The position numbers were made by a program, and so were the translations under genes. Positions 1,211 to 63,867 of a DNA stretch of 64,000 bases are shown piece after piece (position 1 is the first letter of the stretch; each line of letters begins with the position of its first letter). Origin of the DNA: a virus; IMG/VR virus record IMGVR_UViG_3300047276_000181, positions 3,256 through 67,255 of that record; one strand, 5' to 3'. A model generated the notes under the pieces. It searched no databases, was not told the DNA's origin, and saw only the letters and a program-made list of their open reading frames with translations.

Positions 1211-1601
1211 AGACAAGATTATAGAGGAGGCAGACCGGGTAAAGAACCTACTACTCAGAAAGAACGCCTCATACGGAGACAGCGCACTCAAACCTGCAAA
1301 CGTCTTCGCCAAAGGTTCAGCAGTTGAGAATCTATGCTCACGTATAGATGACAAACTGATGCGTATCAAGAATCGAGGCATCAATGTAGACACTACGGAT
1401 ACTATAGATGACTTGATTGGTTACCTAATTCTTTTAAACATAGCACTCAAAGATGTTAAATCCGAATCTACTGAAGAGGCAGGTGACAATGTTCGCCAAC
1501 ATAACGGAAACCAAGACACCACACTCAGTGTCAGTGGAGCAAGTTATTGGACGGACTCAAACACCAAACGAAAGTACATCTGGCCTGATATCGAAGATTA
1601 G
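1200..1601 (+). CDS. DUF1599 / nucleotide-modification-associated domain (MazG-like helical) protein, copy 1
   Basis: LLLRKNASYGDS...RIDDKLMRI...DTIDDLIGYLIL pattern; C-terminal tail overlaps the primase gene. Confidence 0.75.
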   Translation: MSSKDKIIEEADRVKNLLLRKNASYGDSALKPANVFAKGSAVENLCSRIDDKLMRIKNRGINVDTTDTIDDLIGYLILLNIALKDVKSESTEEAGDNVRQHNGNQDTTLSVSGASYWTDSNTKRKYIWPDIED

Positions 1602-7890: not shown

Positions 7891-7963
<73 letters not shown>

Positions 7964-7966
7964 CTT

Positions 7967-8040
7967 GCCCCCATAGCTCAATTGGATAGAGCAACGCACT
8001 TCTAATGCGTAGGTTACAGGTTCGATTCCTGTTGGGGGTA
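7967..8040 (+). tRNA. tRNA-Arg(TCT)
   Basis: ACGCA-CTTCTAA-TGCGT anticodon arm, GGTTCGATTCC T loop, GCCCCCA/TGGGGGT acceptor. Confidence 0.92.
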
Positions 8041-8081
8041 CTATTGCATATGTGGACTACGTTAATTACCTTTGTTTCACT

Positions 8082-8944: not shown

Positions 8945-11900
8945 CTACTTTTTAGCGCTCCGTAGTTTGTCGTACTCGTACTTAAACTTAGGGCTGAATC
9001 GGTAGCCAGACTCGTTGTAAATCTGCTTCCTAAGGTCAAGCAGTTCCTCCTCGTTCATATCTCCGTAAAGCAAGTAGACCTTCTTGGCTCTAGCCTCCTC
9101 GTCCTTAGAGTATATGATTTCGTTTACGTTCTGACCTGCCGCACGCTTCTTCGCTGACGTAAGGAACGAGTCTCTGTAGTACATAGCGTCTACCTTATCC
9201 TCCTTAGCTATGTCAGCGGATGTAGCCTTAGCCTTGTCAAGGATTGCCTTCTTCTCAGCTTCAGTCTGAGCGGCCTTATACTCTAAACCTAACTCCTGTG
9301 CGGCATCGCGAATCTTCATACGCTTGCTTCCAGACTCTTGGTCTATCTTCATAAGCTCCTCCTTCTGGTTGTAAATCTTCCAGTCTGGGTTAGTCTCGCC
9401 CCATATTGACTTACTGATAGACAATCCATTCTTGCCTAAAGCATCCACGACCTTAGCAGCCGAAGCCTTGCTCTCCTGCGCCGACAACTCATTGTCGAGA
9501 GGGACAACTGATGTGATGAGGTCAAGCATACCATAGACCGCTCCAACCATCAACGACGAACTCGGGCTTGTTATTACCTTCTCAGTTGCTGCCTTCAAGC
9601 GAGCTGGAGACAATCCGCTCTTCTCTCCGGTAACTAGTTCCTGAGTCTCACCGAACACCTTGCCGATTACCTTGTAGAATCGCTCAACGTTCGGGTCGTT
9701 TATACCTTCATCCATAGGTAGAACCTCGTTGAAGTCCATAGTTACGGCACGCTTACGGAACGAGTCATAGTTGGTCTGGTACGTAATTGCGGCGCTAAGG
9801 AACGGTATGGATGACGTAATCTCTGAAAGAGACGCTCCAGTAGGCAGTGCATTGGTCACTCCCTTAATTGCGTATCCAATTAAGTCATCTGAAGGTAGAT
9901 ACTTATCTCCAAGTACCTGAGCCATAGCGTATCCATTTGCGATGTCCATCATAGCGAAGAATGGAACCATTTGCTGCGGCTTGGCAATCTTAATGTACGC
10001 CCTACGCTCCTTACCCTTCTCGTCTGTGTACTTGGTAGGCAAGAAGATGATGAAGTATCTGAGCTTAACGTCCTCAGGTATATCGTCTAAGTCGTCACCA
10101 CCAACTAGTGCGTTCATCATAGCAAGAACAAACATACCAGCCTGAGCCTGAAGGAACTTGCTAGCGAACTTCTTCGGGTTGTTCTTTATGTAATCTGCTG
10201 AAACTCTGAAACCTTGGAACGCAGAGTTAATGTATGGCTTAACTATCTCAAGACCTTTCGTTAGATTACCACCTTGAGCGAAGTCAATTATAGAGCGGGC
10301 GCGATTTACTGCTTGAGCCTTTATCAGTTCTAAATCATCACCTTTTGGCTCGCTTCCGTTCTTCTTTTTATATTCAGCTGCAGCTTCATCTCTAAACTTT
10401 TTGTAGACAGCGACACGGAATCCAACCTCGGAAAGCTCACCGATGCTAGACATCTTATCTACGAACTTGTCAATACTACTCTTATCTAACTTAAGGCTAC
10501 CAGGGCGGCCATCAGTTGACAAGAAGTCCATACCGCCACCCATCTCCATATACTCCTGGAAGTATTTGTCGTCAGCCTTAAATGATTTGACTCCAGAGAA
10601 GAAGTCACGCATAAGGTTGTACGATGCAAGATAAATGTTTTGATTATCGTATATATCGGTAAAGAACAAAATATGTCCGAAGTCACGAGGGAAGTTTCTT
10701 ACGATAAACAGTGGGTTAGCTCTAGTAGCTAAAAGTTTAAGTAGTGCAGAACCAGATGCATAGCTAATCCACTTATTCAGATTAGGCCCTAAATCAAACA
10801 ATCTGTTAGCTCCGTCCCACTCACGCTTTAAGTCAGTACGAAGCTGAAATTTAAATTGCTCTCCGTTCTGGTAGAAGTAGACAGTTTCAAAACCAACTGA
10901 AGCGCTTCCATCTGGGTCTTGTGGCTTAACCCACTCTTTGTTAGCCGGGTCTAGAGCAGCCTCAAATAACGCTTTATTTGCTCTGTTCTTGAGTATTCTA
11001 GATGACGCAGAAGCCGCATAAGCCGATAGCAAGAACTGAGAGTCCAAAATAATATCATCGTTACTGCCTTCGCGGATTCTTTTAACTTGGTCACCTGTAA
11101 GTCCATAGTCGCGAACAGCTACATCATTGTCACCAAAATCAAAGGCGTGATTCAAGAAAACTCTTGGTGAGTAATCGAAGTCTTTAATCTTATCGTAAAG
11201 CTCCTTGGTGATTAGGCCGTTCTTATATAGGTCATTTAGAATGTTTCTGAACTCGTTAAAGTATGCATCAGCTCTAGAGTTCAAAAGTTCGAAGTTTCCA
11301 ATCTTCTCAGACATCTTCTGAAGTTCTATTTCTGCCACCTCTTTGTTTGCGGTAACTCCAGACTTGCGGTCCATAGTATGCATAGGACGCTGAGTCTCGT
11401 CAAGCATCTTTGTAAGCCTGTCAACTTCAGCACTAGCTTTCGAAAGTTCATCTCTGAGCTTGTTTTTCTTATCTACACTGATGTTGCTAGCCATATTGTC
11501 AACTCGGTACTGAGCGTATTCTAGCTCAATGTTAGCTGTTGCTAGCTCATCAACAATAGCTGCTCTTCTGTCGTCAAAAGACTTATCGATTTCGATTACA
11601 CGACGGAGGAATATAATATCGTCAAGGTTGTCAATGTCTGACTTATTGAGGCCAGAGTATATAGCCCTATGAGCCTTGTTTACGAAATACTTAGCGCGAG
11701 CACTAGCACCGGATTTGTTTACCAAGTAATCATAAGCTCCTGATACTCTAGAATTCAGTATAGCTTTCTTGATGTTCGACTGCTTGTCAAATAGAGCAGT
11801 TCTGATATTATTCAGGTTAAATACTACTTTATACCAAGGCTTCTCCTTAACTCTCTCTTCGTACTGGCTTCTAACGTTAGCCATATTGAATTCAGACTCA

Positions 11901-14900
11901 CGTGCTTCATTAGCTCTGTCAAGGATATCTGCATATAAAGTCTTAGCAAGTATATCACTGATACCCATTTTGTTTGCCAACTCAACGAAGTCTTCCTCGC
12001 TAATTGAAGGGACATATTTTCCGTCTATTACTTCAGCACCGCTCAACAAATGTCTACGCAGTATGTCCATAAGTCCACGCTGCTGACGGAACATTCTACT
12101 GTTAGATATAAGCAGTTGAGAGTCAATCTTAGGCAGTCTGACTCTGAACATCTTCTGTAGTTGCAGAACTGCCGCATTGTATGTGTTAGGACTCCAGATA
12201 TTTAATGCTATGTCAAACCCGTTATTAAACGTGGCAACGCCATCATCAACATAAGTTTTCGCTCTAGATTCATCTGCTGGAACCGTATGGTCAGCAATTC
12301 GGAACATAAACTTAAACGTAGAACTGGTCTTGTTGATTCTGTTGACGAACTTAAGTTCAGCTTCGAAATATCTACTTTCGTCCCTGTCGCCACGTTCCTT
12401 ACGGCCCCTTACTTCGGTTACTACTGTTCCCTTCGGAGCAAAGAATCCCCACTCGTTGCCCGAGCCGTATGCAATCTCTCTTATAGCTCTGTGAAGGAAA
12501 TCAGCAGTTCTATAGGTGTTTACAAAGGATGTCTTTACTCCTTCTCTTCTGGCATCGAGGCGATTTCCGTTTTCTCCGGGCTTCCCAAGACCTGCCTGTT
12601 TTCTAACCACTGCGCTAGCAGGTTCAAGTCCTCCTGGGACAGTTCCATTGCTGGCGGCTTGAGTGTTACTCTGTAGTTCTGCTTCTTTTTCATTTGCTGT
12701 AAAAAATACGTTTGTCTCAACAAAGTTACGCTCAATGTACGAAATCTCTTCGTTTTTGCCAAACTTTGACTTTATTTCGTTTTCTGCTTTCTCGAAGATA
12801 ACCTCTCCTTCAGAAATAGGCTTACCCTCAAACTCACTAATGAACTGGGTTCTAATGCCAAGTACATTTCCTCTGCTATCTCTAGAAATAGTAAACCCTT
12901 TAACATCCATAGCTGCAAGAGCCTTCTTCACTTCATCAAGTGTCTTAGACTCCTTGGTAGGCTTCTTGAGTCCAATCTCGATAATTGGTGCAGCCTTAGA
13001 CGTTTTGATGTCACTAATCCTGCTAAAAAGAACTGCTTCTTGATTATAGCGCTTACCAATCTCTACGACCTTAGCTTCAACAGAAGACACATCAGTTCCC
13101 TCCTCTACAGAGAACTCAACGTCAAATGATGGTTCAGTGTATACATCGCCACTAGGAGAATAAAACTCACCTTCAGAGTCATTTACTCTAGCCACGACAA
13201 CGCCACTGATGTTTCTAATGCTATCTAGTAGCTCCTTCTTTGCTTTGTCATAATCTTTCTTGTCGAACGTTTCAAAGTCCTTGAATGTAGTAACACCTGC
13301 TTGATAACGCTCAGTTTTAAGCTTAGCCGCTTCTTCCTCAAATGAGGATTTCTTTTTACCTACAACTCCAGTCCATTCGTTCTTATCCCATACGTCCTTC
13401 TCCAAGAACCATAGGAATGCCTGAAGGTCATCGGCCTGCCATCCAAGTTTATTAGCGGCCTTTCTCATAACCGACTCTGCGAAGAAGTAATCCCCTCCGA
13501 GTTCTCCTTTAGTATTGACAGTATGCTCGACGGAGCCTTCCTGAGAAGGATGTATTCTCCAGCGCTCAACGTTACCCTGATAAGTTATTCTTCTAAGGTA
13601 TCTAGCTGCCCATACGTCAATCGTAGCTTCAGTAGAGCGTCCAGTTAGGTTACCAGCGAAGTTCTTAGTCTTTGGGCCCTGAGTCTGATTGAGCCAGTTA
13701 CCGTAAAGGGCTTGTAATACTTTAGCGCTGTTAGCGTTGAACTTCTTTCCGTTGCTCTGAAGTGGAACTTCAGTGAACTTGTTAATCAACTTTCTACGAG
13801 CATCAATTACATCTGCATCAGTGTGCGACTTCTTTTTAAATCCAGACGATTTAAGTGCCTCCTCATCGCTCATAGACTCGATACCACTAACGTAATCGTG
13901 GTATCTATTAAGTATATCATCGTACTTACCCAACGAGAATTGACGCATAGCATCGACTGACTGCCTGAAGTTTATGTCTACAGGAGTTCTTGCTGAAGTT
14001 GCGGCAAGCAGTTGACCGAATAACTCGATGTTAGCTCCAAACTTCTTCTGGAACCAATCTCTCATTTTCGAGTACCAGCCTATTCCATCACTAACCTCTT
14101 TGTTGCTTAGGTTTTCGTTTACGTCTTTTACTATCCTGTCTACTAGTACATCAGTTGCTGATTCACCAAAGAACTCCATTGCTCCAGACTCAAGACGGTA
14201 AGGCACTTGCTTAACTTCATAGTTGACGTACTTCTTTCCTCTTTTGTCTACAACCTCTTCGGCCTTAGTAACTTCTTGCTCTACGGCTTCGGGATACTTG
14301 TTATTTACATTGTTCGCGATAGCTCTGGCTGCCGCCATAACTTTATCGTCTGAAGGCTTAGACAGTTTTTGAGCTCTAGCTGCTTCGAAGTCCATTTGAC
14401 CAAGCTCTCCAGTTAGCTGAACGCCAGCACCCAACTCTTGGGCCATCTGATTTAGTCCATCAAATAGTTGAGCAGTAGACGGCTGAGTCTTGATTCCAGC
14501 CATACCCAGAATGCTCTTAACTGATTCAACGAATTTAGTAGCAAGGCTTCTCTTGATGTTTATATCAATATCTCCAGCAGCCACCAAAGAGGCCAACTCA
14601 GTCAGAAACTCGTCATTGGTGTTATCAGTGACATCGTATCCGCCAAGGAACTTATCCATACGTGCTTGAAGCTGTGGGTCTCTCTTGACGGCTCTCTTGA
14701 GTTTATTAGCAAGACTGTTTACACCTTCAGCTCCCATTGTTCTTGGGATTATCTCGTGGATAGCTTCGTGGTATGCTGTATTCGAAAGCAAAGATGGAAT
14801 GTATACGTGGACCTCATTAGGCTTACCATCTTTGTAAGATATATGAACACCACGCTCCAACTGACCAGTTTGCTCCTGCATACTTTCAGGAGTAGTGTGT

Positions 14901-16960
14901 GCGACAAAGTTTACGTCAACGTTTGACTTAGCAAATGAATCAATAACGTTTTGAATACTTTGAATTCCAAGACCTACATTCTCCCTAGTTGTTTCATAAG
15001 AGGAGATTACCTCGTCAGAAAGATTAGACAAGAACGTATTCATAGAATCAATTGCCTCACTAACAGTTTTTTGATTCAGCTTGAATCTCTTAACTTTAAA
15101 GCCTAGATTTTCTGCGGCTTGAGTTACTTCTTGTGGCGCTTGAACCACTCCACTTGCCGGAGCCGCTTGACTGCTTCCTCCTTCGACAGGTTGGGTTTGC
15201 TCAATGGTTTGCCCTTCGACGACAGGACTTGGTACTTGTTGTTTCGCTTTGCTATCATATTTCTGTTCGATTTTAGCCTTCTCGGCCATAGCATTCTTAA
15301 TGTCGGTAACAGCCTGTGCCTTAGCTTCAGCGCTAGTAAGGCTGCCGTAATTCTTCATACCACTTGATATGGCCTGATTAAGCTTAACGGTCTGCTGTAG
15401 GTCCTCCTCTGAGAAGTTAGAGTAGAAAGACTCGGCATCTTTCTGCATCTTACGCTCTTTGGATATGTAGTCATTCAGTCTAGTCTTAAGCAGTTCCTTC
15501 TCTCCTTCAGATACTGAGGGGTCAGCAATGAGGGCGTTGATTTCAGATATCTTATTTCTGATTTCAATCCTGTCCTTGAATATAGGAGTCTGTAGAAGTG
15601 CCGATGGTCCGGTAGTAACCACACCGACAGAGCCACCCATAGCCGCGCCCACAAATGCTGACTCGGCGATGTTCATATAGTCTACCTTGTCTCCGGCTAA
15701 AACCTTTTGGAGAACCTCTTGCGTAGTAGCAACGATGGCCTCTTCCATACCTTCCTCGAGTGGTTGACGTGCCAACGCTGGAAGCTTTCCGAAGATTAAG
15801 TCTCCGAACTCCTTCTTAGACATACTGGCAACCGCATCAGCACTCTTAAACAGCCCCCTAACTGCTTTCAAGTCGGAAGCAAATATCTTCTCAGTGGCGT
15901 ATTCAGCTAGACCTGAACCGACGGCATACAGTAGCTTTTCAGCTTGTGAATACCTGTTGTCGTCCATCACTTCAGTCCAAGCACTACCTGCTGCGGTAGC
16001 ACCCAACGCCACAAGACCAACACCACCAGATAAAGCTCCAACACCAAGGTTGACCGTCTGGTCCAGCATATCAATACCGAGAAGACGGAAGTCTCCCTCA
16101 AGTGCCATACTCAATGCACCTCTCTCGATTTGCTCTGGAGTATAGCCTAGATTGAACTTCTCGGCATAGTTCTCTAATGATACTTTCTTCGACAAGCTCT
16201 TAGCCTCCTCTCCGAATGGACTATATCCAGATATAGCAAACTGATTTACTCCACCGGGACCTGGAAGATTCTTTACGGTCATATCCAAGAATCCATTGAT
16301 TCCAGAAACCATAGCGTCAAGACCTCTAGATACGAACGTGCTGTTCTCAGCTAATCGCTTCTGCTCCTCTCTGAATCGCTCCATTGAAGCCTTAACGTCA
16401 GAGTCTAGCAGCGAAGTGGCCGCAACATTAAACGAACCATCTTCGTTAAATATAGACTCCGGAGCCAAGTTGTCTACATCGAACTCTTTATATTTTACGT
16501 AAGTCTTCTCGAGCTCAGGTCTGATTTTCTCAAGGTCCTCTACGCTACTTATGTTAGACAGCTTAGATGCTATCTCAGAACTGATTTCACCTCGCTGAAC
16601 TTCGGCATTCTCTCTCTTTATACCCTCGGATACGAGTTTACCTGTTGGTGTTGCAAATAAATCAACGGGTTTGCCAGTCTCCATTGCCTGCATACGAGCC
16701 TGCTGGAAGTCGCGCTCCCAGGAATCAGGCTTAGGCATAGAGCTCTTAGATACTGGTAACTCCGAAGAAGTAGGCTCTTGAGCCGAAGTGGACTGTGATT
16801 CCCCACCGTCCGTTCTTTTTTTTTTACCCGAGTAGAAGCTTGATGCAAACGCAATGTCTTCGTTAGAGAAGCCGTTGTCCTTCATAGCCTTAGATATCTG
16901 GTCTAAGGACTTTCCGCTGGCGTACGCCTTCTCTAAGATTGCCTTAAGTTCTTCGTTCAT
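8945..16960 (-). CDS. large polyvalent virion/ejected protein (zincin HExxH, TIDVW-motif domain, SAM-lyase-like segment, C-terminal LPD38-like domain)
   Basis: 2671 aa; YHEAIHE; PKTKNFAGNL..ATIDVWAARY; EPSFDV..RYNQEAVLF; DFAQGG...PYINSAFQG...YIKIAKP. Confidence 0.7.
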   Translation of the reverse strand: MNEELKAILEKAYASGKSLDQISKAMKDNGFSNEDIAFASSFYSGKKKRTDGGESQSTSAQEPTSSELPVSKSSMPKPDSWERDFQQARMQAMETGKPVDLFATPTGKLVSEGIKRENAEVQRGEISSEIASKLSNISSVEDLEKIRPELEKTYVKYKEFDVDNLAPESIFNEDGSFNVAATSLLDSDVKASMERFREEQKRLAENSTFVSRGLDAMVSGINGFLDMTVKNLPGPGGVNQFAISGYSPFGEEAKSLSKKVSLENYAEKFNLGYTPEQIERGALSMALEGDFRLLGIDMLDQTVNLGVGALSGGVGLVALGATAAGSAWTEVMDDNRYSQAEKLLYAVGSGLAEYATEKIFASDLKAVRGLFKSADAVASMSKKEFGDLIFGKLPALARQPLEEGMEEAIVATTQEVLQKVLAGDKVDYMNIAESAFVGAAMGGSVGVVTTGPSALLQTPIFKDRIEIRNKISEINALIADPSVSEGEKELLKTRLNDYISKERKMQKDAESFYSNFSEEDLQQTVKLNQAISSGMKNYGSLTSAEAKAQAVTDIKNAMAEKAKIEQKYDSKAKQQVPSPVVEGQTIEQTQPVEGGSSQAAPASGVVQAPQEVTQAAENLGFKVKRFKLNQKTVSEAIDSMNTFLSNLSDEVISSYETTRENVGLGIQSIQNVIDSFAKSNVDVNFVAHTTPESMQEQTGQLERGVHISYKDGKPNEVHVYIPSLLSNTAYHEAIHEIIPRTMGAEGVNSLANKLKRAVKRDPQLQARMDKFLGGYDVTDNTNDEFLTELASLVAAGDIDINIKRSLATKFVESVKSILGMAGIKTQPSTAQLFDGLNQMAQELGAGVQLTGELGQMDFEAARAQKLSKPSDDKVMAAARAIANNVNNKYPEAVEQEVTKAEEVVDKRGKKYVNYEVKQVPYRLESGAMEFFGESATDVLVDRIVKDVNENLSNKEVSDGIGWYSKMRDWFQKKFGANIELFGQLLAATSARTPVDINFRQSVDAMRQFSLGKYDDILNRYHDYVSGIESMSDEEALKSSGFKKKSHTDADVIDARRKLINKFTEVPLQSNGKKFNANSAKVLQALYGNWLNQTQGPKTKNFAGNLTGRSTEATIDVWAARYLRRITYQGNVERWRIHPSQEGSVEHTVNTKGELGGDYFFAESVMRKAANKLGWQADDLQAFLWFLEKDVWDKNEWTGVVGKKKSSFEEEAAKLKTERYQAGVTTFKDFETFDKKDYDKAKKELLDSIRNISGVVVARVNDSEGEFYSPSGDVYTEPSFDVEFSVEEGTDVSSVEAKVVEIGKRYNQEAVLFSRISDIKTSKAAPIIEIGLKKPTKESKTLDEVKKALAAMDVKGFTISRDSRGNVLGIRTQFISEFEGKPISEGEVIFEKAENEIKSKFGKNEEISYIERNFVETNVFFTANEKEAELQSNTQAASNGTVPGGLEPASAVVRKQAGLGKPGENGNRLDARREGVKTSFVNTYRTADFLHRAIREIAYGSGNEWGFFAPKGTVVTEVRGRKERGDRDESRYFEAELKFVNRINKTSSTFKFMFRIADHTVPADESRAKTYVDDGVATFNNGFDIALNIWSPNTYNAAVLQLQKMFRVRLPKIDSQLLISNSRMFRQQRGLMDILRRHLLSGAEVIDGKYVPSISEEDFVELANKMGISDILAKTLYADILDRANEARESEFNMANVRSQYEERVKEKPWYKVVFNLNNIRTALFDKQSNIKKAILNSRVSGAYDYLVNKSGASARAKYFVNKAHRAIYSGLNKSDIDNLDDIIFLRRVIEIDKSFDDRRAAIVDELATANIELEYAQYRVDNMASNISVDKKNKLRDELSKASAEVDRLTKMLDETQRPMHTMDRKSGVTANKEVAEIELQKMSEKIGNFELLNSRADAYFNEFRNILNDLYKNGLITKELYDKIKDFDYSPRVFLNHAFDFGDNDVAVRDYGLTGDQVKRIREGSNDDIILDSQFLLSAYAASASSRILKNRANKALFEAALDPANKEWVKPQDPDGSASVGFETVYFYQNGEQFKFQLRTDLKREWDGANRLFDLGPNLNKWISYASGSALLKLLATRANPLFIVRNFPRDFGHILFFTDIYDNQNIYLASYNLMRDFFSGVKSFKADDKYFQEYMEMGGGMDFLSTDGRPGSLKLDKSSIDKFVDKMSSIGELSEVGFRVAVYKKFRDEAAAEYKKKNGSEPKGDDLELIKAQAVNRARSIIDFAQGGNLTKGLEIVKPYINSAFQGFRVSADYIKNNPKKFASKFLQAQAGMFVLAMMNALVGGDDLDDIPEDVKLRYFIIFLPTKYTDEKGKERRAYIKIAKPQQMVPFFAMMDIANGYAMAQVLGDKYLPSDDLIGYAIKGVTNALPTGASLSEITSSIPFLSAAITYQTNYDSFRKRAVTMDFNEVLPMDEGINDPNVERFYKVIGKVFGETQELVTGEKSGLSPARLKAATEKVITSPSSSLMVGAVYGMLDLITSVVPLDNELSAQESKASAAKVVDALGKNGLSISKSIWGETNPDWKIYNQKEELMKIDQESGSKRMKIRDAAQELGLEYKAAQTEAEKKAILDKAKATSADIAKEDKVDAMYYRDSFLTSAKKRAAGQNVNEIIYSKDEEARAKKVYLLYGDMNEEELLDLRKQIYNESGYRFSPKFKYEYDKLRSAKK

Positions 16961-56082: not shown

Positions 56083-56631
56083 ATGTTGTACAAGTTTAAC
56101 AGGCACGACCTAACGTTCCGACCTGTGGTTACCTTGAGAGGTGTCGCGACCGCTTCGGTGGTTGCGGCATCCCTCTTGGGCATCGCAGTCAATACAATCA
56201 GCAACGTAGACGAAATAATCTACGAGGACATACTGCACATCAACGTAACCGAGAGAGCCTTTACTGAGGCACGCCTCGTTGAGAAGATTCAGCAGTTAAA
56301 CATTCGATTCCCGCACATCGCATTGGCTCAGGCTAAACTCGAGAGCGGAGGATATAAGTCGACGATATTCCAAGAGAACAACAACCTCTACGGAATGAAG
56401 GAGGCACGCGTTCGTATCAATGTTGCGACAGGTACGAGCCGTGGACACGCGACCTACTCACATTGGGAGGACAGCGTGACTGATTATGCCTTTTGGTGTG
56501 CGACCTACGCATCGCAGTGCAAGACGGAGGAGCAGTTCTATGCTCTACTTGCTCGGTATGCTGAGGACGTGTGCTACGAGGCGAAACTTCGCGAGGTCAT
56601 CGAGCGCGACGGCCTGCGCGATTTTTTTTAG
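56083..56631 (+). CDS. glucosaminidase (GH73-like) with N-terminal membrane anchor
   Basis: LAQAKLESG...NNLYGMK...YA.D..Y. Confidence 0.8.
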   Translation: MLYKFNRHDLTFRPVVTLRGVATASVVAASLLGIAVNTISNVDEIIYEDILHINVTERAFTEARLVEKIQQLNIRFPHIALAQAKLESGGYKSTIFQENNNLYGMKEARVRINVATGTSRGHATYSHWEDSVTDYAFWCATYASQCKTEEQFYALLARYAEDVCYEAKLREVIERDGLRDFF

Positions 56632-56860: not shown

Positions 56861-57061
56861 ATGACCTACAACCAAGATATGATTCTATTCCTACAGCACC
56901 GCATTCAGGCGATGGAGAAGGAAATGACTACGCTACGTGAGCAGTTAGACAAGGCAAACGAACGTTGCGAATACCTTGACGCTGAGAAAGAACATCTTCT
57001 GAATCAGTTACTTGACAAGCCGTATTTGCGACTACGCAGTGAGTTACCAACAGGACTTTAG
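56861..57061 (+). CDS. coiled-coil hypothetical protein
   Basis: Heptad pattern; ATGA overlap. Confidence 0.55.
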   Translation: MTYNQDMILFLQHRIQAMEKEMTTLREQLDKANERCEYLDAEKEHLLNQLLDKPYLRLRSELPTGL

Positions 57062-57391
57062 TAACCATTGATTATGTCATCGGTGAGCGCTAACTTCGCC
57101 TCATCGGAGAAGCCGATAACGCAAACAATAGATGGCGGTGCGGGGGCTTTAAGGGCCCCCCTCCCGCCTACCTAACGACTCAAGACGACGAAACGGTCGT
57201 ATACAAGCGCAATCGGGGCGCACTATATCCTAAACGCAAAGCATTTTAACTGATGAAAAATAACGATAAGGAAACGCGTGAGTCGTTCGTACGAATCGCA
57301 ATGGCTCGCATCAAGTCCGACTATCCATTCTACCCACAGCGTATCGCAGTAGCCGCAAGTATGTATCGTCGATGGCTAGACAAGAAATAAG

Positions 57392-57649
57392 ATGAGTAAG
57401 TACACCAACCGATACGGAGACGAGTTCACGTTTGAGAAAAACGAGAACGGGAATGTTGACTGGAAGGGGAACTTCAAGTACACACGATTCGGATGGGACA
57501 ACGATGACAACATCATATTCGTTGACCCAAGCGGAGGACCATTCATACCTGTCGGCACAAAGATGTCGCTGTATGGACTTGATGGAATCGCATCAGGATT
57601 CGTTGACCACGACGACTATTGGGAGATATTGATTGAGGATAATGTGTAA
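57392..57649 (+). CDS. hypothetical phage protein
   Basis: NRYGD...FVDPSGGPFI motif. Confidence 0.65.
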   Translation: MSKYTNRYGDEFTFEKNENGNVDWKGNFKYTRFGWDNDDNIIFVDPSGGPFIPVGTKMSLYGLDGIASGFVDHDDYWEILIEDNV

Positions 57650-57668
57650 TATGTTGTATATTTGTGTA

Positions 57669-58394
57669 ATGAAAGAGAACTTAATATACGGCCTGCGTGA
57701 CCCACGCAATGATGTTTATAGATACATAGGTAAGACAACAGTCGGTGTTGGCCGTCCGCTTAGCCACCTAGTAAAGTCCCACAATGTGTTCGTTAACAAT
57801 TGGGTTGACGAGCTGAGTCTTATTGGTTTTCATCCTCACGTTGACGTGATTGAAAGAGACATAGAGCTTGAAAACCTATCAACAAGAGAATCATATTGGA
57901 TAGCATACTACTCAGACCTTCACGGTGAATTGTTCAATGGAGGCGACAACGTATACGAGTCTATAGTTGAGCCTTCAATCCTTTCGTGCGATGACATTGC
58001 CAAGACTTATCGTTCATTGCTAAACGTGGGCGAGATATACAAGAAGGTAAAAGTACAATATAGCCTATCTGATGAAGAGATAGCTTCTTTACTAAATGTC
58101 TCAAGAGGTACTGTTTATCTTATCAGGCGGGGCGGTATGAAGACAACATTAGAAACAATAGCAAGGCTTTGCTTCTTCGCTAGTAAAACTATGGATGATT
58201 TTGCTACATTTTACATTAGTAAAACCAATGAATTTAAAGGAGCAATCCCAGACACTAAGGAGGAATTTATTACAGAGTGTCTTAGCAACGAAGAATTTCT
58301 AAGAACTTGGGCCAACAAATACTTCAGTGCTGATTGTCAAGTCAACAAGTTGAAGTATAATAAGAGAGCACCACGCAAGAGGAAAGCGCTATGA
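57669..58394 (+). CDS. GIY-YIG endonuclease-like protein with C-terminal HTH
   Basis: LIYGLRDPR...RYIGKT..R...H...RESYWI; SDEEIASLLNVSRGTV; TATATTTG box just upstream. Confidence 0.75.
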   Translation: MKENLIYGLRDPRNDVYRYIGKTTVGVGRPLSHLVKSHNVFVNNWVDELSLIGFHPHVDVIERDIELENLSTRESYWIAYYSDLHGELFNGGDNVYESIVEPSILSCDDIAKTYRSLLNVGEIYKKVKVQYSLSDEEIASLLNVSRGTVYLIRRGGMKTTLETIARLCFFASKTMDDFATFYISKTNEFKGAIPDTKEEFITECLSNEEFLRTWANKYFSADCQVNKLKYNKRAPRKRKAL

Positions 58395-58539
58395 AACAAG
58401 ACGCAATTCACAAGAGAGGCAAGCAGTTCTGCTTACACTGCCAAAAGGATACGATGCATACGCCAAAACTCGGACTCGTTATGCAGAACAAGCGTCTATG
58501 TGAAGAGTGTCATAGGTCTAACTATTTCAACACTGAAGA

Positions 58540-58854
58540 ATGAAACGACTAACAAGAGAACAAAAGAAAGAGAAGGCAATCGTTGACATCGTCAATAAGA
58601 TGTTTGAGATTGCTGGACACGACGTAACCTACGACGACATCGTAGGCGTAGACGAGTGGTGGCAGAAGTACACTATGACTGTTGCTCAGGGCGATGAACT
58701 TGAGGAGTGGGGCAAGCAGTACCTTATGCGAGAACTTAAGTTGCGTGCAGCGTACGCAGAGAAGGAGATGATGTGGTTCAGTGTAATGTGGGGGCTGAAG
58801 TATTCAGACTTTGACGAACACATTAAATCAAAAATTAAAACCAACGAGAAATGA
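58540..58854 (+). CDS. hypothetical protein, first member of the TNEK junction array
   Basis: Ends KTNEK with an ATGA overlap. Confidence 0.65.
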   Translation: MKRLTREQKKEKAIVDIVNKMFEIAGHDVTYDDIVGVDEWWQKYTMTVAQGDELEEWGKQYLMRELKLRAAYAEKEMMWFSVMWGLKYSDFDEHIKSKIKTNEK

Positions 58855-59048
58855 AAGGAGCCTTTATATGTCCATATTGTAAGACCAGAAACGCTTGTGA
58901 TTGTAAATCTTGCAAAGAATACATTCAAGAAGGTGAGTTTGTAATAACTTTTTCAGAAGATGGGGAATATATGCTGTGCGGCAAATGCAATAGACCATTT
59001 TCATTTGACCAAGCAACTGATGAAGAATACAAAACAAACGAGAAATGA
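58851..59048 (+). CDS. Cys-rich zinc-ribbon protein (cassette)
   Basis: CPYC, CDCKSC, CGKC; ends TNEK. Confidence 0.65.
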   Translation: MKGAFICPYCKTRNACDCKSCKEYIQEGEFVITFSEDGEYMLCGKCNRPFSFDQATDEEYKTNEK

Positions 59049-59099
59049 AAACCGAGTATCCGCCTGCGGTTAAGTGGTGGAAAATAAATAAAGATAGAA

Positions 59100-59273
59100 A
59101 TGAAAAACAACTTATTTGTAATCCTATTGACAGCATTGTTTATCACGCTCAAACTGACCTCCGTTATTGATTGGTCTTGGTTTTGGGTATTCTCTCCTGC
59201 GCCAATTAGTTTTGGTATTGGATTCGTTCGTGGAATGGTAAAGGCTATAGTTAATCACACCAACGAGAAATGA
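59100..59273 (+). CDS. small membrane protein with LKL..VIDWSWFWV motif (cassette)
   Basis: Read from the sequence; 57 aa ending HTNEK. Confidence 0.65.
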   Translation: MKNNLFVILLTALFITLKLTSVIDWSWFWVFSPAPISFGIGFVRGMVKAIVNHTNEK

Positions 59274-59479
59274 AAACACCAATGCAAGAGTTGATTGATA
59301 AACTCAACAATGTAAAGCCAACAGAGTTCTGTTCTATTGAAACAATCAAAAGATGGGCAGAGTCACTACTTGAGAAAGAGAAGGAGCAGATGATTGATTG
59401 GTATGCTACGGGGCAGGCAGATACAGTAAATATGTATGAGCAACACCTCAAAAAACCTTCTAACACCAAAGAGAAATGA
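59270..59479 (+). CDS. MKTP.QELI...EKEKEQ family protein (cassette)
   Basis: Paralogous to the next two ORFs. Confidence 0.7.
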   Translation: MKTPMQELIDKLNNVKPTEFCSIETIKRWAESLLEKEKEQMIDWYATGQADTVNMYEQHLKKPSNTKEK

Positions 59480-59724
59480 AAACACCAGTGCAAGAGTTGA
59501 TTGATAAGTTGGAGTATTTACAGCGTACAAATCCTAACAAGCTTTTTATAGAACAAGGAATCCATCACGGTCTAGAAGCAGCAATAAAAGAGGCAAAATC
59601 AATGCTTGAGAAAGAGAAGAATATGATTGAAGATGTGTATGTTGTCGGTTATTCAGATGGAGATAATGGTTTTTATTTTAACGATGATTACTACAACAAA
59701 ACCTTTAACACCAACGAGAAATGA
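59476..59724 (+). CDS. MKTP.QELI...EKEK family protein (cassette)
   Basis: Ends YYNKTFNTNEK. Confidence 0.7.
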   Translation: MKTPVQELIDKLEYLQRTNPNKLFIEQGIHHGLEAAIKEAKSMLEKEKNMIEDVYVVGYSDGDNGFYFNDDYYNKTFNTNEK

Positions 59725-59972
59725 AACAGACAGCAGTAAGGTGGCTTGAGAATGTGCTAATCTGGGACCCTATTTCAGAAGAAGAATTTGAGCATAATAT
59801 GAATTGCTGGGAGCAAGCCAAAGAAATGGAGAAGGAGCAGATGTTAAAAACATTTGCTGAATCAAGAGTCATTTCCGTTGAATGTGCAGTTTGGAATTGC
59901 GAAGGTGACAGAAGAAAATGGGAATCATTTGAACAATACTACAACGAAACCTTTAACACCAACGAGCAATGA
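59721..59972 (+). CDS. MKQTAV.WL...AKEMEKEQ family protein (cassette)
   Basis: Ends QYYNETFNTNEQ. Confidence 0.7.
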   Translation: MKQTAVRWLENVLIWDPISEEEFEHNMNCWEQAKEMEKEQMLKTFAESRVISVECAVWNCEGDRRKWESFEQYYNETFNTNEQ

Positions 59973-60172
59973 CACCAAAAGAAAAAGCACAAGAGTTGGT
60001 AAGCGAAATGCTATCTGTCAAAATGCTATTTATGCGATATGAACACGCTAAGCAATTCGCATTGATTGCAACGGATGAGATGTTGAGTCTTGGCGCAATG
60101 GTTGGTAGTGATTTGTCAGACTCATTTTACATCTATTGGGAAGAAGTAAAACAAGAGATTAAAAACCTTTAA
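59969..60172 (+). CDS. MTPKEKA.EL...YW.EVKQEI family protein (cassette)
   Basis: Starts inside one junction repeat and stops inside the next. Confidence 0.7.
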   Translation: MTPKEKAQELVSEMLSVKMLFMRYEHAKQFALIATDEMLSLGAMVGSDLSDSFYIYWEEVKQEIKNL

Positions 60173-60184
60173 CACCAACGAGAA

Positions 60185-60325
60185 ATGAAAAGGATACTTG
60201 AAATTATAGAAATAGGAATGTCTCAAAGTTTAATACATCGGGAGGATGAACCAACTGATGAACTCATTGACACATTTGAATTGATGCTTGAATTAAACGA
60301 AATGCTTAAAACCAACGAGAAATGA
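60185..60325 (+). CDS. 46-aa acidic protein (cassette)
   Basis: Read from the sequence; MKRILEI...LKTNEK. Confidence 0.6.
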   Translation: MKRILEIIEIGMSQSLIHREDEPTDELIDTFELMLELNEMLKTNEK

Positions 60326-60555
60326 ACGAGGTTGACATCTTCATTAATCGTATGAAGCGTATTGGTATTGAGCTTGAGCTGATGGGTAACGTCCCTTGGA
60401 TATACCTACGTAGCGTCAATGGTAACAAAATAGACCGCATAGACTGGTCTTCCGACTGGGGATATGTCATCGCTTGGCTACCAGTATATGACAAGAAGCC
60501 AATCCTTGACGAAGACATCAAGAGAACATTTGAAGTAATCCGTAAGTACAAATGA
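60322..60555 (+). CDS. hypothetical protein
   Basis: IGI..EL.GN.PWIYL..VNG pattern. Confidence 0.65.
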   Translation: MNEVDIFINRMKRIGIELELMGNVPWIYLRSVNGNKIDRIDWSSDWGYVIAWLPVYDKKPILDEDIKRTFEVIRKYK

Positions 60556-60752
60556 GAACAGAAGAAGAACAATGGGACGTTGCAAAGAAGTTGGTATACG
60601 ATAAGATTCGTCGTGCGTTTCACTCTAACAGCTATTTCCTAAACAAACAGCAGTGCGAGAAGGTCGCTGACTTTATCGTAGAGTTGTCAAAAAATGAACC
60701 TCAACTCGGAGAATATCCGAATAACCAAACAAAATCTGACAATGGAAATTAA
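60552..60752 (+). CDS. hypothetical protein
   Basis: ATGA overlap. Confidence 0.55.
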   Translation: MRTEEEQWDVAKKLVYDKIRRAFHSNSYFLNKQQCEKVADFIVELSKNEPQLGEYPNNQTKSDNGN

Positions 60753-61071
60753 AACAGGAAAGTACTACTCACAGTGGGGACTTGGTGTGTCATTCATCAA
60801 CTACACCAGAGGTATGTGGTCAATCGTGGTAGACCTCGGTCCGTACTACATTGACTTCTACAATATGAACGGCAACGAAGGAGACAACCTCGAGGCATTC
60901 AACGAGTTCTACAAGAACATCGACGACGACTTTGGTCCAGCTCCTGACTGCTCTAAGTGCGGCAAGGAGAGCAAGTCTTGGGATGATCTTATGTTCAACA
61001 TAGAGTCCGGAGAGAACTGGGAATTGTGGTGCCACGAATGTTTAGCCAACAAAAAACAAACTGATTTATGA
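60742..61071 (+). CDS. hypothetical protein with CxxC...CxxC
   Basis: CSKC and CHEC. Confidence 0.55.
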   Translation: MEIKTGKYYSQWGLGVSFINYTRGMWSIVVDLGPYYIDFYNMNGNEGDNLEAFNEFYKNIDDDFGPAPDCSKCGKESKSWDDLMFNIESGENWELWCHECLANKKQTDL

Positions 61072-61194
61072 AAAATCCACGACTGATTGCTGAACAATAC
61101 AAAAAGGCGCAGTACTTTCGCAACGTCTGCAAGTACAACCGTAACGAACCTGAAGAGAAGTACTGGTCTGGCTACCTTGCGGCATTAAGTTTAA

Positions 61195-61488
61195 TTGACA
61201 GTGTCAACCACAGAGCTTAAGCTGGTTAAGCTGTTGATTGTTATGCAGGTTCACCTTGAAATGCTTGATGAGCTACAGACGACGCCAATTTATCGTCACA
61301 ACATCAAACGATCAGTCAACAATCTTGTAAAGGATCTTGAGTTACAGCTAAATGGCATCTACAAAACTATGAAGACAGACAACGACGTAGAGGAAGCATA
61401 CAACGCAGTTAAGAACGGCGTTGATATGCTCCTGTCTGCTGACACAGAAACATTGTACAACATCGGATATCGTCCAACTAATAACTAA
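61195..61488 (+). CDS. hypothetical helical protein
   Basis: ORF in operon context; start uncertain. Confidence 0.55.
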   Translation: MTVSTTELKLVKLLIVMQVHLEMLDELQTTPIYRHNIKRSVNNLVKDLELQLNGIYKTMKTDNDVEEAYNAVKNGVDMLLSADTETLYNIGYRPTNN

Positions 61489-61494
61489 AAACAA

Positions 61495-61794
61495 ATGACA
61501 ACAGGAGAACTGTTCCTCGCAGTAGAGGACTGGGCACGCGAGCGTAACCTGCTCGAGCCAGAGTACCGCAACCGCCAAGCGCTTAAGGTAATGGAAGAAG
61601 TCGGAGAGACTATGGCGGCACTTGCCCGCGGAAAGAAATCCGAGCTTGCCGATGGTATCGGTGACTCTATCGTAACATTGATCATCTTGGCATCGCAGTC
61701 AGGACTCAGTGCACACGACTGTTTGCAGTTGGCATACAACGAGATCAAGGATCGTAAGGGTCGTATGGTTGACGGAGTATTCGTAAAGGAATGA
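61495..61794 (+). CDS. MazG-like nucleotide pyrophosphohydrolase
   Basis: WA.ERNL...KVMEEVGE...DGIGD..VTL...AYNEIKDRKG.MVDG.FVKE. Confidence 0.88.
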   Translation: MTTGELFLAVEDWARERNLLEPEYRNRQALKVMEEVGETMAALARGKKSELADGIGDSIVTLIILASQSGLSAHDCLQLAYNEIKDRKGRMVDGVFVKE

Positions 61795-62234
61795 CATCAG
61801 CAGATAAAATCAGAGAGATTGCAAACGGAGTTCGTGATCTCTTGCTTGAAAAGAATGCAGCATACGGAGACTCAGCGCTCAAGCCCGCCAATATCTTTGC
61901 CAAAGGTTCTGCTGTTGAGAATCTAGCCTGCCGTATCGACGATAAGCTGATGCGCATCAAGAACCGCGGCATTACTGGAGACACAGAAGACACCATCCAA
62001 GACCTCATTGGATACCTTATCCTACTTAAAATTGCAATTGAAAATGAGCGTAACCAACCAACAAGTAACAATCTTTCCGAGCGTAACACAAACGGACACT
62101 CCCAGTTATATAACAGTGAAGTCCGCTTTGTCAAGAATCTCGACTGGTGGGAAACACCTACCGCTGGTACAGCAAGTAAGATCAGGCCAGAAAGAAGCGA
62201 AGAAAAAGCTTCCGGTGATCCTATGGGCGGGTAA
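61791..62234 (+). CDS. DUF1599 / nucleotide-modification-associated domain protein, copy 2
   Basis: Core nearly identical to 1200-1601 (YGDSALKPAN.FAKGSAVENL..RIDDKLMRIKNRGI). Confidence 0.75.
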   Translation: MTSADKIREIANGVRDLLLEKNAAYGDSALKPANIFAKGSAVENLACRIDDKLMRIKNRGITGDTEDTIQDLIGYLILLKIAIENERNQPTSNNLSERNTNGHSQLYNSEVRFVKNLDWWETPTAGTASKIRPERSEEKASGDPMGG

Positions 62235-63867
62235 GTTTGAGACGCGTCGTGACGACGCAATAACTGACCACTCTGGTCTAATTGTACTCGACTTCGACCA
62301 CATTGATGTTGAGGGCAGCAAGAACGTACTATCAACAGACCCATACGTCTTTGCCTGCTGGATATCTCCATCAGGAGAAGGACTCAAAGCATTGGTCCGT
62401 GTGTCCAATCCTAGCCTCCATAGAGACCATTTCCGGGCACTTCAGTCGTACTTCGATACCGAGTATGGTCTCGAGGTAGATCCTTCTGGAATCAACGAAT
62501 CTCGAGCTTGCTTTGACAGCTACGACCCAGAGCTTGTACTTAACGAAGACTCTAAAGTTTTTGGGCAGATGCTTTCTGAAAAAGCAATCGCCCAAAAAGC
62601 TGAGCAGAAAGGACAATACACTGACTACAACAAGCTCGCCATCGTATCATCTATGGTGCGACGCGCAGAAGACGGAGAGAAGCACGCAACACTTCTGAAG
62701 GCAGCTATCCTTTGTGGTGGATATATTGCTGTTGGACGTATGGAGGAAGAAGAAGCCTTCCACGTTCTCGAGCGAGAGATCCTCAAGCGAGATGTCGACT
62801 CAATCGTTACTGCTCGGAATACTATACGTGACGGAATCGAGAAGGGCAAGACAATGCCCATCCGCGAAGTATTAGAAAACGAGAACTCCGTCAAGCTTGA
62901 GATGATGATCAACGACGGCGATATGTCGTTCATCTCTTCTGACGACGAGGACTATCGTTGGATTCAGGACTACATCGACGGCAAGCTTATCCTTGGCCTG
63001 TCTACCGGATGTGAAGCTTTGGATAAACACTTCTTGTTCAAGCGAGACTTCACCATCATCAACGGTATTTCAAACATCGGTAAGTCTACGTTTGCCCTGT
63101 ATATGATTACTGCGTCAGCAATACGTCATAACTGGCGGTGGATTATTTACTCCGCTGAGAACCGCACGGCGGCTGTTAAGATGAAGCTCATCCAGTTTGC
63201 TACTGATATGCAGGTGAAGGATATGAACTCCAGCCAACTTAAGCAGGCATACCAGTGGGTCAACGAGCACTTCACCATCATTAGCAACAAGAACATCTAC
63301 TCATACACAGACCTAATGGTCTTTGCTGAGAAGCTTGTGCGCCAAGGAAACTACGATGGATACTTTATTGACCCGTACAATAGCTTGAAGATTCAGATGT
63401 CCACAGGTACTGCATTGTCTACGCACGACTACCACTACGAGGCAGCATCTGAATTCCTAACGTTCACACAGTCACACAATATGGCTTTGTGGCTATCGAC
63501 ACACGCCATCACAGAGGCTCAACGTCGAAAAGGAGAGGATGGTTTACCTCAGGCTCCGTATGCTGAAGACACTGAAGGTGGTGGAAAGTTTGTTAATAAG
63601 AGTGATAACTTCTTGACATTCCACAGAAAAATTCAGGCGCCAGATCATAGCATCCGGAGAACTGTTGAGTTGCACGTTCGCAAAGTTCGAGAGGTAGAAT
63701 CTGGAGGAGAGCCAACGAGTTTAGACTATCCTGTGCTGTTCGAAATGAACCACACTAACACAGGTTTTGTAAACAAGTTTACCAGCAAACCATTATTCAA
63801 TTCAATACTAAAACCAATTGTTAAAAAGTTAGACTTTGAATCTGGCAATTATTCAGATGCCTTCTAG
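62044..63867 (+). CDS. primase-helicase, copy 2
   Basis: Collinear with 1453-3312: SGLIVLDFDH, SPSGEGLK, GISNIGKS, FIDPYN, EGGGKFVN. Confidence 0.88.
   Translation: MSVTNQQVTIFPSVTQTDTPSYITVKSALSRISTGGKHLPLVQQVRSGQKEAKKKLPVILWAGKFETRRDDAITDHSGLIVLDFDHIDVEGSKNVLSTDPYVFACWISPSGEGLKALVRVSNPSLHRDHFRALQSYFDTEYGLEVDPSGINESRACFDSYDPELVLNEDSKVFGQMLSEKAIAQKAEQKGQYTDYNKLAIVSSMVRRAEDGEKHATLLKAAILCGGYIAVGRMEEEEAFHVLEREILKRDVDSIVTARNTIRDGIEKGKTMPIREVLENENSVKLEMMINDGDMSFISSDDEDYRWIQDYIDGKLILGLSTGCEALDKHFLFKRDFTIINGISNIGKSTFALYMITASAIRHNWRWIIYSAENRTAAVKMKLIQFATDMQVKDMNSSQLKQAYQWVNEHFTIISNKNIYSYTDLMVFAEKLVRQGNYDGYFIDPYNSLKIQMSTGTALSTHDYHYEAASEFLTFTQSHNMALWLSTHAITEAQRRKGEDGLPQAPYAEDTEGGGKFVNKSDNFLTFHRKIQAPDHSIRRTVELHVRKVREVESGGEPTSLDYPVLFEMNHTNTGFVNKFTSKPLFNSILKPIVKKLDFESGNYSDAF

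Follow-up and report, generated by a model that had tools for sequence, protein, structure and literature searches.

A short coding joint at the borders of exchanged accessory genes in a group of uncultured phages

In T4-type phages, short conserved expression elements known as PeSLs stand before ORFans in hyperplastic regions, and excerpts of the papers describing them propose homologous recombination between the copies as the mechanism of exchange, so that every gene that moves is accompanied by the signal for its expression (Arbiol et al., 2010, PMC2839356; Comeau et al., 2014, PMC4122927). According to the same excerpts, PeSLs are intergenic, conserved over ~100 bp and composed of a sigma-70 promoter, a stem-loop terminator, a Shine-Dalgarno (SD) site and a start codon, and mini-circles arising from exchange between neighbouring copies have been shown (Arbiol et al., 2010, PMC2839356; Comeau et al., 2014, PMC4122927). 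Here we describe a repeat that appears to work alike but is built differently. It joins a row of small accessory genes in a 64,000-nucleotide (nt) stretch of viral DNA (the window; bases 3256-67255 of the 67,255-base IMG/VR virus record IMGVR_UViG_3300047276_000181, rated 100% complete), and we refer to each copy of it as a joint, to the gene body between two joints as a cassette and to the row as an array. PeSLs are the closest described system: the joint likewise precedes ORFans in a hyperplastic region, and it is here that related phages start and stop differing from one another. In contrast to PeSLs, the joint is only ~27 nt long, has no promoter, terminator, stem-loop or SD site, lies within coding sequence, where it provides the final codons of one gene together with its stop, and then the first two codons of the next, and acts, as we infer, on translation within one polycistronic row. 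A sigma-70 scan gave 16 sites against 19.8 expected with none recurrent at joints, the Bacteroidota -33/-7 promoter pattern had 4 matches in the window and 0 at joints, and a terminator scan gave 14 sites against 16.4 expected, with none in the array on the + strand.

Clusters of attC sites that lack an integrase (CALINs) nevertheless derive from integrons. They have been reported in phages, as excerpted from Qi et al. (2023, PMC9892861). An earlier note on this DNA, made from its letters and open reading frames (ORFs), proposed an integron-like plug-in system. The cassette array altered at the repeat is indeed what related phages show, whereas the integron mechanism did not hold up, with no recombinase, inverted repeat or hairpin found; the joint system is integron-like in outcome, not in mechanism. 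The likeness to integrons and CALINs lies in the co-directional, mostly single, promoterless and unrelated small genes, in the repeated site, and in units that are permuted, gained and lost. The differences are that no IntI-type or serine recombinase was found in five records, that the joint is a 27-nt direct repeat rather than an attC site with imperfect inverted repeats and a single-strand hairpin, and that it overlaps both adjacent coding sequences and has no fixed crossover point. No inverted repeats were found at the joints, and single-strand DNA folding of six joint stretches gave z values of -0.27 to +1.82 against shuffles.

Two further arrangements invite comparison. Translational coupling joins a stop to the next start by an overlapping ATGA, through termination and reinitiation, and the joints resemble it in that 205 of 343 have the ATGA overlap and 70 of 343 place the stop 12 nt before the start. 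However, ordinary coupled genes do not share ~20 conserved nucleotides upstream, whereas here they form a portable, lineage-wide module. Susskind and Botstein in 1978 and Clark et al. in 2001 are said to have proposed that boundary or linker sequences at lambdoid gene borders guide homologous module exchange; these are reportedly few, weakly conserved and debated, whereas the present joints number in the hundreds, are nearly identical and have exchange borders that could be measured. A search of the literature outside subscription journals and supplements turned up neither a description of joints of this kind in Bacteroidota phages nor their sequence.

The joint in the window and across related phages

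The earlier note had described eight repeat copies as gene boundaries, each encoding a ..TNEK end and, through an ATGA overlap, the start of the next gene. Eight copies of ACCAACGAGAAATGA with at most one mismatch, on the + strand only, do span 58840-60325, and each of them (8/8) coincides with a gene border; stop and start are shared at the ATGs so marked in Table 1. The copy at 60163-60188 is read in another frame, as had been noticed, and there the upstream ORF terminates at the TAA of the repeat, before the next ATG. In 100 dinucleotide-preserving shuffles, ACCAACGAGAAATGA had a mean of 0.18 matches at up to two mismatches and none of the 100 reached the observed total; the two-mismatch matches outside the array (13929, 23447 and 32690) are chance-like in appearance. 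A longer form, AAACCTTTAAC..., is found at 59699, 59947 and 60163, and a ninth, decayed copy opens the membrane-protein gene 55 nt after a full copy (ATGs 59100 and 59045).

A motif search across phage genomes, which had been suggested as a check, was run on IMG/VR and found at least 119 stretches with the exact 17-mer of the repeat (115 contigs by count). Comparisons were made on the window and these listed stretches (120 sequences; W is the window, L denotes loci and G genomes). An alignment of 213 unique copies gives the consensus AAAcctTtAAcACCAACGAGAAATGAAA for the full unit of ~27 nt, which extends from about -22 (-21/-22) to +5 around the ATG, and the TAA at -15..-13 is kept in 78-92% of these copies though it lies outside the search word. 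The 120 sequences hold 343 joint copies, always on one strand, and a position weight matrix (PWM) at a threshold of 14 scores 338 hits, all of them on the motif strand and 0 on the opposite one. Two or more copies occur in 88 of 119 loci, in clusters of up to 10 with a median spacing of 218 nt, and a second complete genome of 67 kb (G003) has 16 joints in three places on a single strand. Shared backbone gene families link 105 of the 120 sequences, which therefore represent essentially one large phage group. Within arrays, 278 of 301 gene starts bear the joint; outside them, 1306 gene starts have a median PWM score of -31 (95th percentile -5), and the window genes neighbouring the array overlap by plain ATGA with the motif absent. 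The joint is a property of the arrays, not the general start context of these phages.

What is conserved is the nucleotide sequence itself. Upstream ORFs stop at the TGA (..TNEK) for 205 of the 343 joints and at the TAA at -15 (..NL) for 70; a further 18 continue through the joint in the third frame, and the other 50 joints have no upstream ORF or one of fewer than 30 codons. That DNA or RNA is conserved and not the peptide alone, much as the earlier note suspected, is supported by the 88 of 293 copies with an upstream ORF of at least 30 codons that are read in another frame; 58 frame-3 copies, which follow 21 unrelated families, retain the whole 27-mer AAccTTTAACACCAACGAGAAATGAAA. Synonymous sites are close to fixed among the 213 unique copies, with G at -3 in 97% (GAG over GAA) and C at -9 in 94% (ACC), and this fixation occurs in AT-rich genes. 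The upstream part of the unit, -22..-15, encodes ..ETF, which is the conserved end of g0, the largest cassette family. In g0 homologues from other lineages ..ETF is followed by other tails (KSE, NQ, KQQEQ), so the core NTNEK-stop/ATG is a lineage-specific joint and not a feature of g0, although the joint unit may have originated as the end of a g0 gene.

Exchange of cassettes and its borders

From phage to phage, the gene bodies between joints have been swapped, dropped, acquired and put in a different order, and the borders of these changes lie inside the joint. Proteins that start at a joint number 310 and fall into 88 families. Cassettes keep a fixed length while their order differs between related phages with the same backbone: F5-F6 in L110, L047, L095 and L057, F6-F5 in L126, L022 and L117, and F6-F28-F5 in L034, the first two orders each being recovered from at least three separate data sets. 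Five pairs of identical arrays also come from separate data sets (L021/L064, L032/L103, L106/L116, L036/L118 and L045/L092). Family g5, with 16 instances, has 10 different neighbour families upstream and 7 downstream. The backbone g38-g53-g34-[array]-g25-g26-MazG...primase is syntenic in W, L046, L044, L038, L055, L099, L013, L106 and L047, and array content differs between all of them. The zinc-ribbon cassette of W is 96.2% identical to that of L106/L116, and the high-scoring segment pair (HSP) ends at -12/+6 of the joints on both sides and in both contigs; the primases of W and these two contigs are 63% identical.

Closely related sequences record individual events. Contig pairs at least 93% identical display 53 distinct indel or replacement events, of which 13 have both ends in joints and the remainder are located in the backbone or have one end only at a joint. 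Single-cassette indels with both ends in joints separate L012/L090, L020/L061, L048/L109 and L095/L117. Logan contigs from four public runs break and diverge at joints, and in a contig of run X3 (record 10, depth 69) position 59264 is joined to 59471, a loss of 206 nt that is exactly cassette 3; 17 nt are shared at the deletion joint and the 423 flanking bases have 0-4 mismatches. Junctions that go back in the Logan contigs, a possible trace of excised circles, are indistinguishable from additional joint copies. The earlier note had named a fixed gene order in related phages, or indel breakpoints away from the repeat, as grounds for refuting the array. Neither ground was borne out, as content and order do change at the repeat in related phages.

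The borders can be placed by comparing pairs of joints. Where the upstream family is the same and the downstream family different, identity is 0.55-0.9 to about -18 and at background from +6; where the upstream family differs and the downstream one is shared, it stays at background to -22 and is 0.75-1.0 from +6. Cassette-specific sequence thus ends at about -22 and resumes at +6. The zone [-30,+8] around joints covers 12.9% of positions within arrays but takes in 797 of the 1238 left HSP ends and 652 of the 1501 right ones. A homology block ends near 264 of 280 joints and, among other gene starts, near 741 of 1275; breakpoints are thus common at any gene border in these mosaic phages, and joints are near saturation. 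The bases found at -12 and -9 vary with the upstream cassette and those at +4/+5 with the downstream cassette, and crossovers therefore have no one sharp position. Breakpoints also cluster at a conserved 15-mer (EKEQM) inside the g0 genes, which makes a second class with examples in W, and g0 homologues give half-gene matches at 81-90% identity. Since homology blocks begin and end at this 15-mer, g0 proteins are chimeras of halves.

Possible mechanism and rival explanations

We put the probability at roughly 0.6 that the joint is a portable stop/start joint that doubles as a short-homology crossover site in the accessory-gene region of related uncultured phages. Two of the three reading frames meet a stop in the joint, one at a TAA and another at a TGA, and ATG-AAA opens the next gene, so that a gene body between two joints is closed in two of three frames and has a start directly after it. 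As the earlier note expected, a gene inserted at a joint meets a start, either in the ATGA stop/start overlap or across a 12-nt gap from stop to start. Expression of any inserted body would then follow from translation restart or initiation within a polycistronic row in a host that does not depend on SD sites. Exchange would proceed by homology-dependent recombination between joints, both inside one genome and between co-infecting phages, probably assisted by a Rad52-like annealing protein and a RecE/YqaJ-type exonuclease of the phages. Joints would stay uniform through the circulation of only those cassettes with intact joints, together with homogenisation by frequent exchange.

The anatomy of the joint is consistent with initiation of this kind. 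It has A at -14, -13 and -11 and AAA as the second codon, and its predicted mean pairing is 0.30-0.37 vs 0.42-0.53 at 300 control gene starts. In Flavobacterium johnsoniae, initiation is favoured by A at -11..-14 and by low structure, according to an excerpt of Baez et al. (2019, PMC6847099). The joint resembles such SD-independent Bacteroidota initiation in its A-rich -14..-11 region, its ATG, its low structure and its lack of an SD site; it differs in that the host context, as excerpted from Baez et al. (2019, PMC6847099), is a loose preference while the joint is an exact sequence in which G at -3 and C at -6 replace the favoured A.

The phages carry candidate recombination genes. An exonuclease gene matches the PDDEXK family DUF3799 (E 6e-21) and phrog_412, 'exonuclease VIII', and is the most widespread backbone family (55 loci). 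Its start is overlapped by the gene for a 178-amino-acid (aa) protein, the pair lying at G000:1645-2972, just before the window. The best Foldseek matches of a model of the 178-aa protein (pLDDT 70) are Mgm101 and RAD52 (E 1.5e-3, probability 1.0, TM score 0.39-0.43), and the two genes are likely to form a recombination module. YqaJ and ERF occur in other contigs of the group.

Several observations count against this interpretation. The candidate annealing protein has a medium-confidence model with weak fold scores, and sequence searches of this 178-aa protein returned no match. A length of 27 nt is short for annealing, phage Red and RecET systems being poor below about 30 nt. Ordinary gene starts are likewise rich in breakpoints (58%), and 1053 of 2739 in-array HSP ends lie at neither a joint nor the internal block. 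Translation restart is read off the anatomy of the joint, and the exact sequence is unneeded for translation alone because genes of the same operon use plain, motif-less ATGA; the G at -3 and C at -6 stand where the best base is A in the excerpted F. johnsoniae data (Baez et al., 2019, PMC6847099). Every relative comes from a metagenome assembly and some adjacencies are possibly chimeric, yet the five data-set pairs agree. Finally, the almost complete fixation of synonymous positions could reflect a reader that recognises this particular sequence, and a repressor, RNA-cutting enzyme or nuclease is a live rival to a portable crossover joint or an addition to it.

In its strongest form this rival makes the joint mainly a sequence-specific regulatory site, with recombination there as a by-product, which we consider unlikely but worth keeping in view. 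The site might be the operator of a phage translational repressor or a target for RNA cutting, either of which could turn all the accessory genes on or off at once, or a promoter for a phage factor that yields near-leaderless mRNAs. A protein or RNA reader would fit the ~27 nt at a fixed distance from the ATG, the restriction of the joint to array genes with its difference from the general start context, and the exact sequence held at synonymous sites and in three frames among contigs whose backbones are only 63-75% identical. However, no reader was identified: Sigma70_r2 is absent from G000 and G003 (control positive in 10/14 genomes), and a T7-type RNA polymerase search without a match is uninformative, as its control also matched nowhere. 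Nor do the joints carry a sigma-70-like or Bacteroidota-type promoter pattern, or pair in any special way with Bacteroidales 16S rRNA (334/500 shuffles equal). Joints between unrelated cassettes agree at 0.84-1.0 per core position vs 0.74-1.0 for orthologous cassette bodies, and because they are about as alike as those bodies, a young circulating pool could explain their uniformity. A related and similarly doubtful possibility combines both ideas in a recombinase-free network of cassette exchange, the integron's counterpart among phages, in which a 27-nt dual-coding adaptor would serve as stop, start and transfer ticket and be kept uniform by a dedicated phage factor. This factor would either initiate exchange as a nuclease or switch the whole accessory set at the RNA level.

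A dedicated site-specific recombination system acting at the joint, integron-like or new and with its enzyme encoded elsewhere or by the host, is improbable. Co-directional single-gene cassettes, permuted in exact unit lengths, exchange borders within a 27-nt site and the precise one-cassette deletion would all be expected of such a system, but the searches for its enzyme and its site were negative. The earlier note saw no integrase in the window, and in the five records, two of them complete genomes (G000, G003), PF00589 (tyrosine recombinase; control positive in 14/14 genomes) and PF00239 (serine recombinase; control positive in 12/14 genomes) were each found in 0/5. A Pfam scan of 147 large families, on motif-strand ORFs only, held no integrase among the first 25 of 75 matched families. 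At the joints there are no inverted repeats, single-strand folds are no better than shuffles and pairing is low; a single crossover point is absent, and breakpoints also occur at a short conserved block inside genes, as expected of homology and not of a site.

Very improbable, too, is a reading in which nothing is exchanged and the repeats are no more than the conserved end (..YYNETFNTNEK) of tandemly duplicated g0 paralogues. This would account for the 77 of 186 family-assigned frame-1 copies that follow a gene of this largest cassette family, for the ..ETF encoded at -22..-15 and for three consecutive g0 genes in the window, but 109 frame-1 copies follow 44 other families, 58 frame-3 copies follow 21 others, the tails KSE, NQ and KQQEQ follow ..ETF in other lineages and cassettes change context, so that the reading is largely refuted and could survive only as an origin of the motif. 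Least probable of all is that the shuffling is only apparent and arose during metagenome assembly, across repeats held in common: although every relative is an assembled contig, co-occurring phages share cassettes 90-96% identical and the two ends of the window's record carry diverged duplicate modules, the same arrays recur in five pairs of separate data sets, both F5/F6 orders come from at least three each, and Logan contigs are built from 31-mers, which exceed in length the 27-nt joint as well as the 17 nt in common at the X3 deletion, so that joint-spanning words exist in the reads.

Two other candidates were tried and rejected. Pairing with 16S rRNA in the manner of a termination upstream ribosome-binding site (TURBS), with Parabacteroides 16S as a stand-in host, was equalled by the 334 of 500 shuffles given above and by 192 of 500 for the 3' tail, and a search of 57000-61500 for known RNA families in Rfam gave nothing at E up to 1.

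The joint system is a real, large-scale, PeSL-like exchange element, its mechanism being the inferred part. Small accessory genes are the class with most anti-defence and host-takeover functions, and the arrays provide a countable example of how they can be traded between phages without dedicated enzymes. A portable stop/start joint of dual coding would render each exchange in-frame, translated and viable. It delimits, with borders to the base, at least 88 families of small proteins, a common pool that could be mined for anti-defence genes and serve as a design model for stackable arrays in hosts that lack SD sites.

The array of the window and its genomic setting

The array belongs to a + strand row of small genes that runs from a terminator-like site at 56604 to the replication genes (Table 1), and promoter-like or terminator-like sites do not exceed chance within it. 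Its cargo is, as first described, partly unrelated and partly paralogous: a zinc ribbon, a phrog_1374 membrane protein, three members of one family (g0), an acidic peptide of 46 aa and one protein each of phrog_21441 and phrog_38683. The g0 members at 59270 and 59476 are 37% identical (E 2e-12), and those at 59476 and 59721 match weakly (E 1e-5). Searches of Pfam and PHROGs matched the cargo to families without known function, and Atlas to viral hypothetical clusters; the protein of cassette 5 has 311 metagenomic homologues, none with more than a generic name. The cargo also proved AT-richer than its flanks, with a GC content of 0.35-0.39 over 58800-60450 vs 0.43-0.52 (about 0.47) in the flanks, and GC lies below the flanks in 46 of 47 arrays of other contigs.

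Table 1. Joints, cassettes and neighbouring features; positions refer to the window unless marked otherwise.
Feature	Position	Strand	ATG	Start of ACCAACGAGAAATGA copy	PWM score	Remarks
Backbone gene g34, 104 aa	58540..58854	+				Kept in relatives; final codons ..TNEK-stop are the first joint
Joint 1	58829..58856	+	58851	58840	36.6	-22..+5 around the ATG; 0 mismatches; stop/start shared
Cassette 1, zinc-ribbon protein, 65 aa	58851..59048	+				Family g113
Joint 2	59023..59050	+	59045	59034	29.4	1 mismatch; stop/start shared; 55-nt remnant behind
Joint 9, decayed	59078..59105	+	59100		-5.7	Repeat family D3, 74%
Cassette 2, membrane protein, 57 aa	59100..59273	+				phrog_1374; paralogue of a backbone membrane protein
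Joint 3	59248..59275	+	59270	59259	31.3	Stop/start shared
Cassette 3, g0-family protein, 69 aa	59270..59479	+				Missing in the variant from a public run
Joint 4	59454..59481	+	59476	59465	36.3	1 mismatch; stop/start shared
Cassette 4, g0-family protein, 82 aa	59476..59724	+				
Joint 5	59699..59726	+	59721	59710	45.0	Full consensus; stop/start shared
Cassette 5, g0-family protein, 83 aa	59721..59972	+				
Joint 6	59947..59974	+	59969	59958	35.9	1 mismatch; stop/start shared
Cassette 6, 67-aa protein	59969..60172	+				phrog_21441; stop is the TAA in the next joint, other frame
Joint 7	60163..60190	+	60185	60174	45.0	Full consensus despite frame-3 upstream gene
Cassette 7, acidic peptide, 46 aa	60185..60325	+				Family search without match
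Joint 8	60300..60327	+	60322	60311	35.4	Stop/start shared
Cassette 8, 77-aa protein	60322..60555	+				phrog_38683, family g70; next gene via plain, motif-less ATGA
First post-array gene, 66 aa	60552..60752	+				
Internal 15-mer (EKEQM) of g0 genes	59378..59392	+				Repeat family D5; identical at 59829-59843
End-module copies	60694-63867 and G000:74-3272 (L128), 1453-3312					

Both edges of the array can be followed into relatives. Backbone gene g34 is 95.6% identical to its counterpart in L044 as far as +5 of the first joint, where homology ends and L044 has a different cassette. At the other edge, g70 and the gene following it form the same pair in L047/L122, and homologues of that following gene (60552..60752) in L044 and L038 start at a joint ATG (8768 and 7450; HSP offsets -2 and +0). 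The 55-nt remnant between the full and the decayed joint (59045-59099) has the same sequence in L074, L041 and L077, and the membrane-protein cassette begins at a full joint in G003/L058. The first 16 codons of gene 60694..61071 (60694-60745) correspond to the start of a separate 78-aa membrane-protein gene that precedes it in L044, L038 and L047; the window phage has lost this separate gene and fused the starts, and the true start of 60694..61071 may be an internal ATG near 60742. The backbone protein g25 ends in ..TNEKS or ..KNEKS in L044, L047 and L074, where the 3' end of its gene may be a decayed joint.

A GIY-YIG/helix-turn-helix (HTH) gene (57642..58394) sits upstream of the array, between g38 and g53, and the earlier note had remarked on its position. 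It is not part of the system: g38 and g53 adjoin in L046, L099, L106 and L055 and have other inserts between them in L038 and L044, the GIY-YIG/HTH gene occurs only in the window among 16 contigs laid out, and its protein has no relatives in IMG/VR. It is an insertion only in this phage that splits adjoining backbone genes, and it looks like a free-standing homing endonuclease gene particular to this phage. Intronless homing by a free-standing endonuclease was considered and rejected, as no endonuclease gene accompanies the variable segment; HNH_3 was found in 2 of the 147 large gene families scanned.

The window phage is a tailed phage, with genes for portal, large terminase, tail fibres, ribonucleotide reductase and primase/helicase. 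No SD sites were found upstream of its genes, and tatatttgca-type boxes stand at several operon heads, which, going by the Bacteroidota promoter, we take to indicate a Bacteroidota host. The array-bearing group probably has its hosts in Bacteroidota. A search for a 20-mer of the joint in 185,579 prokaryote genomes gave two single, array-less copies, in Parabacteroides faecalis and in a metagenome-assembled genome (MAG) of Bacteroidaceae, each preceding an ordinary ORF; about two are estimated by chance, and therefore they name no host. A distant blastn search of 57600-61100 against the GenBank phage collection found no match.

The ends of the record hold diverged copies of one module (g25, g26, MazG and primase/helicase), in which the paired proteins are 79% (g25), 51% (MazG) and 55% (the 619-aa primase) identical; this duplication is either a real diverged tandem across the genome ends or an assembly running into a relative. 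In the structural module, a protein of 2671 aa (8945-16960, - strand) has LPD38 and DUF7178 domains and is of the 'large polyvalent protein' type rather than a recognisable polymerase, and no solved-structure relative of it was found. Genes for tRNA-Met (CAT) and tRNA-Arg (TCT) adjoin at 7891-8041, after the ribonucleotide reductase genes.

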